Virus record (IMG/VR): IMGVR_UViG_3300037439_000104
Location: 1-51,401 of that record
Direction: 5' to 3' (one strand)
DNA from: a virus
Taxonomy: Duplodnaviria > Caudoviricetes
DNA: 51,401 nucleotides
Part shown: in pieces, positions 1-51,401 of the stretch
Layout of the letters: every line of letters starts with the position of its first letter
How positions within the stretch are numbered: the stretch's first letter is position 1
Notes under the pieces: model-generated
Databases searched by the model: none
The model's input: only the letters and a program-made list of their open reading frames with translations
Told to the model about the DNA's origin: nothing
Made by a program: the position numbers and the translations under genes

Positions 1-180
1 GTGCTCGACGCGGTCCGATCCGGGCACCAGAAGCCGGGGCAGATCGGCGACGCCACCAAGTACTCCGACCGGCAGGTGTACAACCTGCTCGGCGTGCTGA
101 TGGAGGCAGGTTTTGTCCGCCACGTCGTGCCTGACGGCGGGAAGCTCGGCTACTACGTGCCGGTGGAGCAGGCCGCCTGA
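1..180 (+). CDS. C-terminal fragment of a protein ending in a winged-helix-like domain (possibly TraB/FtsK-like transfer protein; 5' part outside window)
   Basis: Frame 1 reads VLDAVRSGHQKPGQIGDATKYSDRQVYNLLGVLMEAGFVRHVVPDGGKLGYYVPVEQAA-TGA(180); HTH/wing pattern; followed by a terminator hairpin. TraB identity is contextual inference only. Confidence 0.5.
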   Translation: MLDAVRSGHQKPGQIGDATKYSDRQVYNLLGVLMEAGFVRHVVPDGGKLGYYVPVEQAA

Positions 181-240: not shown

Positions 241-462
241 TCAACCCAGACGCACGTACAGCCCGCCGCGGCGCACCGACTCCAGCAGCCCGGCGGTGAC
301 CATCTCGCGGGTGGCGTCGCGAATCGTCTGCTCACTCACCTCGTACTCGGCGGCGAGCTGGGCGCGGGACGGGATGCGGGTGCCCGGACGCCACTCCCCG
401 GCGCGGATCCGGCGGGTGAGGTCGTCGATGACACGCTGCTTTTTGGTGTCGTCTGCGGGCAC
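241..462 (-). CDS. Small GntR-family winged-helix regulator (HTH only; Kor-like)
   Basis: IRAGEWRPGTRIPSRAQLAAEYEVSEQTIRDA...GLLESVRRGGLYV is the GntR HTH signature; AAGGAG RBS upstream of GTG. Confidence 0.9.
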   Translation of the reverse strand: MPADDTKKQRVIDDLTRRIRAGEWRPGTRIPSRAQLAAEYEVSEQTIRDATREMVTAGLLESVRRGGLYVRLG

Positions 463-539
463 GGCGGTGGGGCTCCTTGGCAGGATTCCGTCACCTCACC
501 ACGCCGATCATGCGGGGTCCAACATGGCTGGTCAGCGGG

Positions 540-568
540 TTGACTTGGTATACCAAGGCCGGCAAGAT
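540..568 (+). promoter_or_regulatory. Putative promoter with a GntR-type palindromic operator
   Basis: TTGACT (540-545)-N17-CAAGAT (563-568); perfect palindrome CTTGGTATACCAAG at 544-557 of the TGGT..ACCA GntR type, upstream of the divergent gntR. Confidence 0.65.
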
Positions 569-574
569 GCCCGA

Positions 575-690
575 TGTGGTCGGGGTTCCTTGGCAGGGTT
601 CCCGCCACACGGGTTCCGGAGCCGGCTGGCTGGTTACCGTGTCGGCCCCGGGCCCACCCCTCGCTACGGGCGGCGGTCCGCGACATTGAG
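575..690 (+). ncRNA. Candidate antisense small RNA (3' end uncertain)
   Basis: Starts just after the promoter; 582-602 repeats 469-489 at 19/21, so it is complementary to the gntR mRNA RBS hairpin; no convincing ORF. Confidence 0.4.
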
Positions 691-796
691 TCCGGGCCGT
701 CGTTCCGTTTGGACAACCAGCGCCGCCAAGCAGTCCACTGTCCGGCCTACTCGGCGGATCGTGATCAGCTGCTCGCGGTCAGTACGGTGCCGGGTC

Positions 797-1336
797 ATGA
801 GCCAGCCACCCGTCAGCCCCGGCCCACCGCCCTACGACCCGCTCGCCGGCCAGTCCTACATGGCGCCCCCGGCCAGCTCAGCGCCGCCGTACCCGGGCCC
901 GTACCCGGCGCCGGGCGCCTACCCGCAGCGGCCACCGGTGAAGCGGAGCTTCTGGTCCAGCCCCGGCGGCATCTTCGCGATCATCGGCATCATCGTCGGG
1001 TCCGTGGTCGTGGTCTGCGTGGGTGTCGCCGTCGTCGGCGCGGTCGCCGGCAACTCGGCGGCGTCGAAGATGGACGCCTCGGTCGTGTCGTGCACGTTCA
1101 CCCCGGGTCCGCTGAGCAGCGCGACGGTCGGTATCCAGGTGAAGAACAACGGGGACTCGACGCGGACCGCCAAGGTGGCTATCGAGTACCGGGACGGCAG
1201 CGGGAACCGGATCGACACCGACACCGCGTACGTGCGGAACGTCCGGCCGGGTGACACGGCGCGGGTGGAGGAGACGACGCTGCTGGACGCCGAGGTGACC
1301 AGCGCCGGGTCGTGCAAGGTCGTGGGCGTGAGCTGA
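797..1336 (+). CDS. Membrane-anchored protein: Pro-rich N-terminus, one TM helix, Ig-like (FxLYD-like) extracellular domain
   Basis: ATG 797 within ORF 296-1336; hydrophobic GGIFAIIGIIVGSVVVVCVGVAVVGAVAG; VAIEYRDGSGNRID...NVRPGDT. Confidence 0.7.
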   Translation: MSQPPVSPGPPPYDPLAGQSYMAPPASSAPPYPGPYPAPGAYPQRPPVKRSFWSSPGGIFAIIGIIVGSVVVVCVGVAVVGAVAGNSAASKMDASVVSCTFTPGPLSSATVGIQVKNNGDSTRTAKVAIEYRDGSGNRIDTDTAYVRNVRPGDTARVEETTLLDAEVTSAGSCKVVGVS

Positions 1337-23355: not shown

Positions 23356-24348
23356 TCAGCGCGGCGCGGGGTCGTCGGTGCGGTCGAGGTGGCGCCCGAA
23401 CCGGCTCATCAGCCGGTAGGCGGCGGCGTTGGCCGGGTCGTACTGCGACCGGTCGTAGCCACGGGTGGTGTCGGTGGAGGCATGCCCGACGTCCCGGGCC
23501 ACGTCGTAGATCGGCACGCCTTCGTCGAGGGCGGCGGTCACGTAGGTCGCCCGGGTCGAGTGCGGGGTCAACTGGTCGACCACGGTGGTCGGTAGGCCGG
23601 CGGCGCGGGCGAGGCGGCGGAGCAGGAGCCGGACGGCCTTGCGGTCCATCCGGGCGCCCTTGGCGGTGGCGATGAGCGGACGCTGCTGGCCGGCACCAGC
23701 CTGGTCGGTGCGGACGACGGCCATGGCGGTGTCGGTCCGAGCGGCCAGGTACCCGTTGAGGCGGGCGACGACCGGCGGCACGAGGGTGACGGTCCGACCC
23801 TTGCCGCCCTTGCCGTGGACGTGGAGCACGGTGTGGCCCCGGTCGACGGCGATGTCGGCGGTGTTCGCGGCGAGCAGTTCACCGACCCGGATGCCGGTGT
23901 GGATGAGCAGCCAGACGATGGCGGCGGAGCGTGGGGTGTCGAGGTCGGCCCGGTCGAGCAGGGCGGCGGCGTGTTCGTCGGACAGCGCGGACGCGGGCCG
24001 GGGCGCCCGGGTGGGGCGTTCCTCCTTGGTGAGCTTGGCCGGGTTCCGCTGGGCCTGCTGGTTGCGGATCAGCCACTCGTAGAAGCTGGACACGGCGCCG
24101 AGCCGGCGGGCCTGGGTGGTGCCGGACTCGCCACGCTGGCCGAGGTGGCCAAGCCAGAGTTGGACGTGGGCGGGCCAGACGTCGAACGGGTCGAGGCCGT
24201 TGGCGTGGCACCAGTCGAGCCAGATCGGCAGATCGCGGCGGTAGGCGTCCTTGGTGTGCTCGCTCCGCTGACCCTTGGCCTCGACGAAGACCGCGACGAG
24301 CCGAGCGAGGCGGTCGCCCGGCTGCGCCACGGGTACGAGGTCGGTCAC
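23356..24348 (-). CDS. Second tyrosine recombinase (XerC/D-like)
   Basis: SAM-like N-terminus; TGIRVGEL, GKG, PHSTR, GHAS..TT..Y complete catalytic set. Confidence 0.9.
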   Translation of the reverse strand: MTDLVPVAQPGDRLARLVAVFVEAKGQRSEHTKDAYRRDLPIWLDWCHANGLDPFDVWPAHVQLWLGHLGQRGESGTTQARRLGAVSSFYEWLIRNQQAQRNPAKLTKEERPTRAPRPASALSDEHAAALLDRADLDTPRSAAIVWLLIHTGIRVGELLAANTADIAVDRGHTVLHVHGKGGKGRTVTLVPPVVARLNGYLAARTDTAMAVVRTDQAGAGQQRPLIATAKGARMDRKAVRLLLRRLARAAGLPTTVVDQLTPHSTRATYVTAALDEGVPIYDVARDVGHASTDTTRGYDRSQYDPANAAAYRLMSRFGRHLDRTDDPAPR

Positions 24349-42901: not shown

Positions 42902-43300
42902 ATGGCTGACGGGTCCGATCGAGGCGTTGCGTACGACTTCTGGGTACGCGTGAAGCGCGAACAGGCGAGCCGTGGGTGGACCGACGAGGAACTACGCCGA
43001 CAGTCGGGCATCGCCCGGACGACAGTTGACCGACTGGAGAAGGGCAAGCGGGCACCCGCCGCAGCCACAGTCAACTCGTTGGCCACAGCCTTGGACGTCG
43101 ACCAGGACGAAGCACACCGTCTCGCACGACTGGTGCCGGATCTACCTCGATCGGGTGGAGTCAGCACCCGCGACGCTGTCCTACGCGACCCGAACTACAC
43201 CGAGACCCAGCGGCAGACGATGCTCGAACTGCTCGATGTGTTCGCTCGCGTCAACGAGCAGGCCGCCGATGCCGACGACCGCGACCGGAAGGCCGGCTAA
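42902..43300 (+). CDS. XRE-family immunity repressor
   Basis: RGWTDEELRRQSGIARTTVDRLEKGKRAP...LATALDV. Confidence 0.85.
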   Translation: MADGSDRGVAYDFWVRVKREQASRGWTDEELRRQSGIARTTVDRLEKGKRAPAAATVNSLATALDVDQDEAHRLARLVPDLPRSGGVSTRDAVLRDPNYTETQRQTMLELLDVFARVNEQAADADDRDRKAG

Positions 43301-44631
43301 CTCTCGCCGCGCCCCGACCGTCGAGCATCCGCCACCGCGTCGACCGCAAGCTCTTCCGCTTCCGGCATCAGGTCCCCGTAGATCTCGCTCGTCGTCGCGA
43401 GCTGCTGATGGCCGAGCCTGCGCGAGATCGCCAGGGGGGTCATCCGAGGATCGCTGAACAACCACATGGCGTGCGAGTGCCGAAGGTCGTGCCACGACGG
43501 CGCCGATCGGAGCACGTCTGGGCAGTCACAGTTGGAGGCGGCTCCAGCTGGCGGGCCGAAGTGCTGGGCGCAGCGGTTGGTGCCCGGCACGACCCGCGAA
43601 CCGCATGCCTGCCCGTTGGCCCGCTGCCCGCCGAAGTCCCGGCACCGACCCCGGGCCCCGGGCACCAACTCACCGCGGTCCGCCGGTGGATGGTCAGAGC
43701 ACCGTCGAGCACGCAGCAACGCTGGCTGCCACACTCGGTCATACATCCGGTCGTAGTCCAGGGCCTCGCCGTTGTCGTCCCGGAAGATGAACGTGTCCGG
43801 TGTGCCGCCGTCGACCAGGTCGAGCAGTGTCTTGTACAGGTCGGCGCCGATCGGCAGGGTCCGCTTGCTGCGGCCCTTCGTCGCCCCGAGGTACCGGGTG
43901 CCGTTCGCTTCCTTCCAGGCCCGCCAGACCCGGATCCGGGGGCCCCTGCCGGGTGTCGGCGCGGCGAGGTGCTTGGCGGCCAGCGCGGTGACCTCACCCC
44001 AGCGCATCCCGGTCTCGATGATGCAGTCGAGCAGCGGGTGCCACTGCTCGGCGAACTGGGCACGGAGCGTCTCGAAATGGCGTGGGGTGAGGTAGACGGC
44101 GTGGTGTTCGCCCGTGTCATCGTCGGCGCGTTGGTCCCGGACGAAGTCGGTGGCCCGGCAGGGGTTCAGGTCGATGTGTCCGTGTCTGGCGGCGGCTTCG
44201 AGCAGGGTGTGCAGCAGCGAGTAGTAGCGGGTGACGGTCTTGGGGCTGCCCATGACCGCGCTGAGTTGGTTGAGCCAGGTGCCGACGGTGACGGCGGTGA
44301 TCGTGGTCATCGGTATGTCGCCGAAGGTGGGCAGGATGTGATCGCGGAGCTGCTGCTCGTATCGGGCCCGGGTGCCGGGGGTGATGCGGGTCTTCGATGG
44401 CAGCCACTCGTCGGCCCACTGCCGCAGTGTCAGCCCGGCCGGTTCCTCGGGCTCCTCCACCACGCCCATGGCCTCGTAGACGTCGTCGGCGCTGATCTGG
44501 TGCCGGTGCCCTTCGGCGATGTCGCGGGCCTGCTCAGCGAGAGGTTCGGTGGGCCACGTGGTGTACTGCTTGCGACCCTCGTAACGCCAGATCACCCGGT
44601 ACGAGTCGCCGCGCTCCTCGATCGACGCCAT
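43297..44631 (-). CDS. int: Tyrosine integrase
   Basis: Arm-binding N-terminus; TGMRWGE, HDLRHSH, LGH...TT..Y; adjacent to the tRNA-derived att core. Confidence 0.95.
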   Translation of the reverse strand: MASIEERGDSYRVIWRYEGRKQYTTWPTEPLAEQARDIAEGHRHQISADDVYEAMGVVEEPEEPAGLTLRQWADEWLPSKTRITPGTRARYEQQLRDHILPTFGDIPMTTITAVTVGTWLNQLSAVMGSPKTVTRYYSLLHTLLEAAARHGHIDLNPCRATDFVRDQRADDDTGEHHAVYLTPRHFETLRAQFAEQWHPLLDCIIETGMRWGEVTALAAKHLAAPTPGRGPRIRVWRAWKEANGTRYLGATKGRSKRTLPIGADLYKTLLDLVDGGTPDTFIFRDDNGEALDYDRMYDRVWQPALLRARRCSDHPPADRGELVPGARGRCRDFGGQRANGQACGSRVVPGTNRCAQHFGPPAGAASNCDCPDVLRSAPSWHDLRHSHAMWLFSDPRMTPLAISRRLGHQQLATTSEIYGDLMPEAEELAVDAVADARRSGRGES

Positions 44632-51336: not shown

Positions 51337-51364
51337 CACCCTGACCAGCCAAAACACCAGTCGC

Positions 51365-51401
51365 GGGGCGCGGCCCGACCTACCAAGAAGCGCCGCGCCC
51401 C
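51365..51401 (+). promoter_or_regulatory. GC-rich stem-loop with CCTACCAAG in the loop
   Basis: GGGGCGCGGC / GCCGCGCCCC 10-bp stem at the window end. Confidence 0.55.

Follow-up and report, generated by a model that had tools for sequence, protein, structure and literature searches.

A predicted antisense hairpin encoded divergently from a minimal GntR gene in an actinomycete phage and its relatives

The gntR locus and its phage setting

The stretch of DNA analysed here (the window; 51,401 nucleotides of an IMG/VR viral record) is 69% G+C and belongs to a temperate phage with head, portal, terminase and replication genes and two integrases; the integrase-like genes lie at 23356-24348 and 43297-44631. 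It appears to be a Micromonosporaceae-like prophage of a soil actinomycete. The nearest relatives of the locus described below lie in Plantactinospora solaniradicis (L005), Micromonosporaceae B7E4 (L006) and genome G237 (L028), in each case within a prophage-like region that has stretches in common with the window’s phage genes. In genome G001 about 4.7 kb separates the stretches that match the two ends of the window (1-180 and 51341-51401), and the window may thus be permuted and incomplete.

The gntR gene (241-462, minus strand, GTG start) sits past the putative lysis genes and adjoins the end of an FtsK/TraB-like gene. Positions 1-180 are the 3' end of this neighbour, a protein of 676-701 aa that is complete in L005 and L006; it carries a P-loop motif and was judged FtsK/TraB-like by eye, Pfam giving no match. 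The initial annotation had called the gene at 241-462 a GntR, and profile comparison agrees: the 73-aa product matches PF00392 with an E-value of 5.7e-18 (64.8 bits; cut-off 27), and its PDB relatives are the DNA-binding domains of AraR, YvoA, DasR and PdhR. It is a winged-helix-only regulator. The C-terminal effector domain that defines the FadR, HutC and MocR subfamilies is absent, the chain ending at residue 73, 2-3 residues past the Pfam domain. Homologues in Plantactinospora and Micromonosporaceae are 81-95% identical to it.

Several features lie nearby. The ORF at 788-1336 (plus strand) encodes a proline-rich, membrane-protein-like product to which no family could be assigned, all atlas matches falling below 0.9; it has a candidate leaderless promoter, with TACGGT 8 nt 5' of the ATG. 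At 1357-1406 a 15-nt sequence with a 14-bp palindrome occurs in two perfect copies 35 nt apart, which precede a Phd/YefM-like antitoxin gene (1412-1777) and are probably its operators; the next ORF (1808-2047) matches no Pfam family, hence no toxin is evident there. G+C-rich hairpins at 193-232 and 2056-2102, each between convergent genes, are probable bidirectional terminators.

A direct repeat and a predicted structured RNA

The gntR leader holds the first copy of a direct repeat (469-489, minus strand), which includes the Shine-Dalgarno sequence AAGGAG at 478-473, 10 nt 5' of the start codon. The second copy lies at 582-602. As first annotated, the two agree at 19 of 21 positions, and both mismatches (C to T and A to G) would become G-U pairs between plus-strand RNA and minus-strand mRNA, leaving all 21 nt paired. 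Their spacing is 113. No further copy occurs in the 51.4-kb window at up to 5 mismatches, and the segment’s score of 15 exceeds the highest value, 12, among 2000 dinucleotide shuffles. The predicted 21-nt duplex of 582-602 with the gntR leader has an energy of -45.4 kcal/mol, compared with -34.2 for the next-best non-self site in the window, and looser RNA-RNA pairing reaches from about 463 to 494. Cofolding, which had been proposed as a check, gives the complex a gain of 24-27 kcal/mol over the folded monomers. Folding also returns both of the hairpins initially described, that of the mRNA around copy 1 with a GCCA loop (on a 4-bp stem) and that around copy 2 with a UGGC loop. The contact between these loops envisaged at the outset suits the window’s clade; for most relatives, however, the mRNA is predicted to start at the seed itself.

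On the plus strand, three tandem hairpins are predicted in region 575-712 (z -2.74). Hairpin 1 (575-609), the putative antisense element, holds copy 2 and its loop at 591-594, a reading that draws on fold prediction and on loop exposure across the family described below. Hairpin 2 (611-655), a long G+C stem and a candidate terminator or stability element, recurs at the same place in relatives, and in another clade the corresponding helix has compensatory changes. A conserved single-stranded C-rich linker (656-665), kept in the window, L005 and L006 and similar in L073, leads to hairpin 3 (666-708), in which 4 of 17 consensus pairs have two-sided changes among 4 sequences and which is probably the 3' end of the RNA in the window’s clade; similarity of the window to L005 and L006 ends at 704-708. 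In the window-clade alignment hairpins 1 and 2 were mis-folded, and hairpin 3 alone found support. Rfam returned no match at gathering score on the window or in 38 source scans, and none of relevance on 200-900 at E-values up to 10. We also considered a leaderless peptide starting at ATG 574 and rejected it, the frame of the core differing between the window and L006 with no peptide shared; an ATG or GTG lies near the predicted RNA start in 12 of 46 loci, against a background of 16%.

Distribution of the module in Micromonosporaceae

To survey relatives we built a profile from 10 small GntRs, of which 9 had been chosen for a repeat at their loci, a choice that biases the proteins found; most clades recovered among the matches listed are not in the seed profile. 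It gave 823 matches in 260 of 401 Micromonosporaceae genomes, with 150 matches listed, and loci were taken from 30 returned and 100 more places among the matches listed, about 20 rows being passed over as apparent repeats of orthologues. From these, 181 GntR ORFs were recovered, 178 with a start codon, and 139 of at most 95 aa lie outside the viral loci L001-L025. A direct repeat was scored between the first 40 nt of the leader and the region 60-240 nt upstream, with a threshold of at least 10. It is present at 100 of the 139 small GntR loci (among the matches listed), against 2/139 in the inverted control and 1.0% of shuffles, with copy 1 over the ribosome-binding site and copy 2 82–135 nt away. 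In the viral loci L001-L025 the repeat accompanies 1 of the 18 long GntRs and none of the 20 short ones. Exact cores of at least 9 nt define 98 loci, from 69 genomes, the window and 2 contigs (among the matches listed); the non-redundant set consists of 58 loci less than 80% alike (57 in some tests). The five window-clade loci (the window, L005, L006, L028 and L073) all retain both copies; within each locus the copies agree in their core, which is GGCAGG in two loci and GGCGGG in the other three. Wherever a genome has at least two modules their cores differ (20/20), and the genes next to the modules vary, from those of prophages to housekeeping genes.

Beyond this family, a class-wide sample of 381 genomes yielded 20 longer GntRs from 18 genomes outside the bacterial-family sample, none with a repeat score of 10, and all 7 positives came from genomes of the bacterial-family sample; a wider range was therefore not found in the genomes searched. 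INPHARED phages and PLSDB plasmids held distant GntRs only, and viral pattern scans gave one chance match and one duplicate of L028.

The loci that miss the repeat include the second genes of tandem pairs, a clade with a bulge difference between the copies, truncated modules that lack copy 2, and locus L085. Tandem pairs of small GntR genes occur at L069, L103, L108, L148, L155 and L166, the antisense module usually standing on the first gene only. In L085 a natural deletion between the copies has left a single fused copy, and both promoters are gone. That these repeats do recombine, as L085 illustrates, would suit a functionless duplication relic whose copies are kept alike by gene conversion; identity, however, is limited to 10-16 nt over the Shine-Dalgarno and the mRNA start in at least 20 protein clades, and the diverging flanks still keep the hairpin, which makes such a relic very improbable. 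Four loci (L060, L136, L185 and L196) have an intact gntR gene, leader and promoter and lack copy 2, from which it follows that the RNA is not always needed. The same four loci count against a type I toxin-antitoxin system in which the RNA would be the antitoxin to a toxic small GntR, as does the protein, a plain winged-helix regulator; the compact cassettes, several per genome, in prophages as well as between housekeeping genes are what one would expect of such a system, to which we nonetheless give hardly any weight.

Divergent promoters and a candidate operator

The predicted promoter of the antisense RNA (540-568, plus strand) consists of a -35 element TTGACT at 540-545, a 17-nt spacer and a -10 element CAAGAT at 563-568, and would start transcription near 574-575. 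Promoter sequence and an associated palindrome (544-557) lie where the initial annotation had placed them; a strict sigma-70 scanner passed over 540-568, CAAGAT having only 3 of 6 consensus matches. Among the relatives, a σ70-like TTG-N16-18-xANNNT ends 6-32 nt 5' of copy 2 in 46 of 58 loci, compared with 0 of 58 control windows. The predicted gntR promoter (493-522, minus strand), the top-scoring such motif in the window, has TTGGAC at 522-517, an 18-nt spacer ending in TG-G and TGAGGT at 498-493, with a start expected near 486-487. On the gntR strand across the family a logo of 53 loci displays a conserved TTG-N18-TG-n-TCNAAT, read as an extended -10, which we infer to be the gntR promoter; the weights for this promoter were chosen manually on these very loci, and at -11 it has C or G rather than A. 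With C for A at -11 of their conserved extended -10, the family’s gntR promoters could depend on an activator protein or on an alternative sigma factor. An upstream ORF in the gntR leader was set aside in favour of the promoter, its frame and stop varying among loci.

The palindrome at 544-557 is a perfect one of 14 bp, lies in the spacer of the RNA promoter and overlaps its -35; it is single in the window with up to 3 mismatches allowed, and its flanks change symmetrically in L028. GntR operators are described as palindromic NyGTNxACNy sequences with TKGT/ACMA boxes (PMC4494728), and 544-557 fits both the consensus and the boxes. The palindrome core, GGTATACC, is present in 5/5 window-clade loci and 0/83 loci of other clades. 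Other recognition-helix groups have words of their own between the promoters: ATGCAT in 16 of 18 loci of one group (1 of 70 others) and ACCTACAA in 14 of 14 loci of another (0 of 74 others), while one group of 10 loci has no common inter-promoter word. These words follow the recognition helix, whereas the seeds follow it only partly, one helix type occurring with two seeds and one seed being used by two helix types. The palindrome is thus probably the operator of the window’s GntR. An operator that overlaps the -35 and spacer of a promoter is in a repressing position, and we lean towards repression of the RNA promoter by GntR through TTGGTATACCAA.

RNA pairing or DNA binding

Covariation of the two copies across homologous gntR loci, proposed at the outset as a check, is borne out on about 100 loci with 28 distinct cores: copy 1 of the 98 loci holds 28 distinct 9-mers, and copy 2 is identical in 86 of 98. 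Mapped on the GntR tree, seven variable positions require 54 changes when copy 1 is taken by itself, 53 for copy 2 and only 58 for the two together; most of the changes thus share a branch between the copies, in a set that was selected for identity, contains one mis-anchored row (L065) and is arranged on a rough tree of 70-aa proteins. Seeds and protein clades are largely co-inherited.

The copies could instead be DNA operator sites lying just past each divergent start and bound by GntR or another protein. Both copies occupy typical repressor positions, the cores mostly follow protein clades, the window’s core is itself near-palindromic, and direct repeats are bound by some GntR proteins (PMC4494728). 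Four lines of evidence nevertheless make DNA operators improbable. First, the mismatches between copies are biased towards G-U: among internal mismatches in the 58 non-redundant loci, 14 of 18 are G-U-compatible, 2 are A-C and 2 are transversions (p ~0.002, with some events shared by kin), although the corresponding test on first mismatches is not significant in non-redundant loci (32 vs 26, p 0.26). Second, the hairpin surrounds copy 2 only and is strand-biased. Across the family copy 2 forms a bulged hairpin that presents the seed in a 4-6-nt loop (unpaired score 8-9 on a scale of 0-9), whereas copy 1 has no fixed fold; mean fold energies are -18.0 kcal/mol for copy 2, -15.7 for the opposite strand and -10.2 for copy 1, and the RNA strand of copy 2 is more stably folded than the complementary strand in 42 of 57 loci, with 130 G-U pairs against 71. 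Third, the repeat ends within -1 to +2 nt of the predicted gntR start in 50 of 58 loci (10,000 permutations gave a mean of 30.8 and at most 43; r 0.83), an agreement that also holds in clades whose cores are 4-6 nt longer; that the repeat stops at the predicted mRNA start is as RNA pairing predicts, unlike a DNA operator. Fourth, helices and seeds cross over while separate spacer motifs follow the helix, as set out above. The σ70-like promoter that precedes copy 2 in 46 of 58 loci, and in none of the control windows, likewise favours RNA pairing.

The evidence from the stems is mixed. An arm of the stem pairs better with the partner from its own hairpin than with one swapped in from the same seed family (-13.8 vs -11.2, own better in 38 of 49), and copy-1 flanks show an own-versus-swapped effect that is smaller and of the same sign. 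RNAalifold across 50 hairpins of different families found no consensus fold, the bulge registers differing, and the alignment of family A9 has no two-sided changes and did not beat its shuffles; in another family alignment the covariation score was matched by 1 of 500 shuffles, the two-sided changes lying in hairpin 2, not hairpin 1. Duplexes average -36.0 for own pairs and -22.6 for cross-family pairs, the own target being better than all other-family targets in only 33 of 57 cases. Taken together, we hold with considerable confidence that RNA-RNA pairing is the function of the repeat.

Proposed mechanism

The best explanation, which we consider probable, is antisense control: a hairpin RNA encoded apart from gntR would capture the gntR mRNA by its 5' end and block translation. 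Transcription from the rightward promoter would yield a structured RNA of about 135 nt, whose first hairpin would show a short, GC-ending seed in its loop. The leftward gntR mRNA would have a leader of only about 24 nt, with its 5' end complementary to that loop. The loop would catch the mRNA 5' end, possibly after a first GCCA-UGGC loop contact in the window’s clade, and pairing would then spread through the bulged stem and bury the Shine-Dalgarno, preventing translation of gntR. Since the two RNAs come from non-overlapping DNA, their complementarity must persist as a co-evolving direct repeat. GntR, having no ligand-binding domain, would most likely bind the palindrome in the spacer of the RNA promoter and repress it, and mutual repression of GntR and RNA would form a double-negative loop. 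Whether that loop is bistable is a more tentative matter, and we place bistability at somewhat under an even chance. Transcription, start sites, pairing in cells, repression and GntR binding are all deduced here from sequence features. For L153 no RNA data set was listed among the sequencing runs searched; three runs with a small share of it were contigs and probably DNA, which is uninformative either way.

The claim of a non-overlapping antisense RNA acting on the gntR ribosome-binding site is supported by the covariation of the repeat; what has to be modified is its picture of a free-standing small RNA, since a Shine-Dalgarno and an ORF of at least 45 aa begin 60-140 nt past copy 2 in 28 of 57 non-redundant loci (17 of the ORFs Cys-rich). 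The RNA may thus double as an mRNA leader. This arrangement, together with the strong hairpin 2 between copy 2 and the ORF, would suit a trans-acting attenuator, in which the same pairing has its main output on the other transcript: gntR mRNA would open hairpin 1 and alter termination or translation of the small downstream gene. Such an output is compatible with antisense capture of gntR mRNA; as the main one it seems unlikely, because the window’s clade has no ORF of this kind after the hairpins and yet keeps the repeat in 5/5 loci, and because the gntR Shine-Dalgarno is always within the paired stretch. Antisense translational control by a switch that is general in the bacterial family is, on the comparative sequence evidence, the most likely reading.

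Comparison with known systems

IS10 RNA-OUT is transcribed in cis from DNA overlapping its target. Here, in contrast, the copies lie 113 nt apart and the transcripts would be divergent and non-overlapping, the complementarity is an imperfect, co-evolving direct repeat with more than 25 natural seed variants, and what is targeted is a transcription factor, itself the probable regulator of the RNA. The initial annotation had likened the locus to phage P1 C4 RNA, a comparison that stands for a separately encoded antisense acting on a ribosome-binding site and fails for the three-stem-loop fold with two recognition loops, which is absent, and for Rfam, which gave no match; IS10 RNA-OUT is closer. 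There the free 5' end of the mRNA is captured by a loop, and the ribosome-binding site comes to lie inside the duplex (PMC4737173), a geometry that 50 of 58 loci would have on predicted start sites. The same source reports that RNA-OUT specificity can be altered in the initiating bases and that engineers have built six orthogonal RNA-IN/OUT pairs (PMC4737173).

The likeness to C4 of P1 and P7 lies in a phage-borne antisense encoded apart from its target, occlusion of the ribosome-binding site and variable loops for specificity (PMC5320573). C4 has three stem-loops, two recognition loops (a' and b') and RNase P processing; the RNA predicted here has three tandem hairpins, one complementary loop and a divergent promoter, and C4 covariance models were not matched. 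P4 CI RNA and IsrK of Gifsy-1 are regulatory RNAs that derive from prophage transcripts, in each case from the 5' leader, and occur both as a small RNA and as an mRNA (PMC4825925); this likeness may hold for relatives with a downstream ORF. P4 CI, however, pairs with seqA and seqC of its own transcript and terminates transcription; the target here is a different, divergent transcript. The nearest protein context is KorSA of pSAM2, likewise a GntR-family repressor on an actinomycete mobile element; the word “antisense” does not occur in the review text on it (PMC2440964). The proteins here have 69-80 aa and no effector domain, and among the long GntRs of viral loci 1 of 18 has the repeat. The gntR-DTE RNA motif lies downstream of gntR genes; no mention of it by name was found in the literature searched, and Rfam 15 gave no match at gathering score. 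An earlier description of small-GntR antisense hairpins was not found in the literature at the level of titles and abstract openings, and supplements with motif screens or start-site tables could list them.

Implications

These observations suggest a family of small RNA–protein switches of gene expression, hitherto undescribed, with many matching seed “keys”. We put forward, tentatively and as a conjecture that could well be wrong, that Micromonosporaceae and their prophages hold a large undescribed family of minimal toggles in which an effector-less GntR opposes a divergent antisense hairpin; each module would have its own operator and seed and would coexist with others free of cross-talk, RNA pairing would replace ligand sensing, and the toggle would flip a small downstream gene in subsets of cells. 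To our knowledge, few small-RNA mechanisms are known in filamentous actinomycetes, and the modules suggest a way in which GntR proteins that have no sensing domain are controlled. With more than 25 seed variants they offer a natural case of antisense specificity diversifying across paralogs, and the family may give a ready-made orthogonal set for antibiotic-producing hosts. It also yields exact predictions for start sites, seed, operator and compensatory mutations.

Two minor observations concern other RNA elements. In the window, a second Shine-Dalgarno on the minus strand (2646-2660) has 9 nt in common with the gntR leader, lies 5' of a 66-aa ORF (2439-2639) among the putative lysis genes and pairs with a 16-nt probe of the antisense RNA at -23.7 kcal/mol; the matching place in related prophages has no seed, and 2646-2660 is a weak candidate for a second RNA target. 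In L011-L025, ten of which were scanned against Rfam with no match, the region 5' of the long GntR genes has a common TGGATATATCCA palindrome, then a conserved CTGAA word and a hairpin with TTCAG, the complement of CTGAA, in its loop; this arrangement could be a pseudoknotted non-coding RNA.
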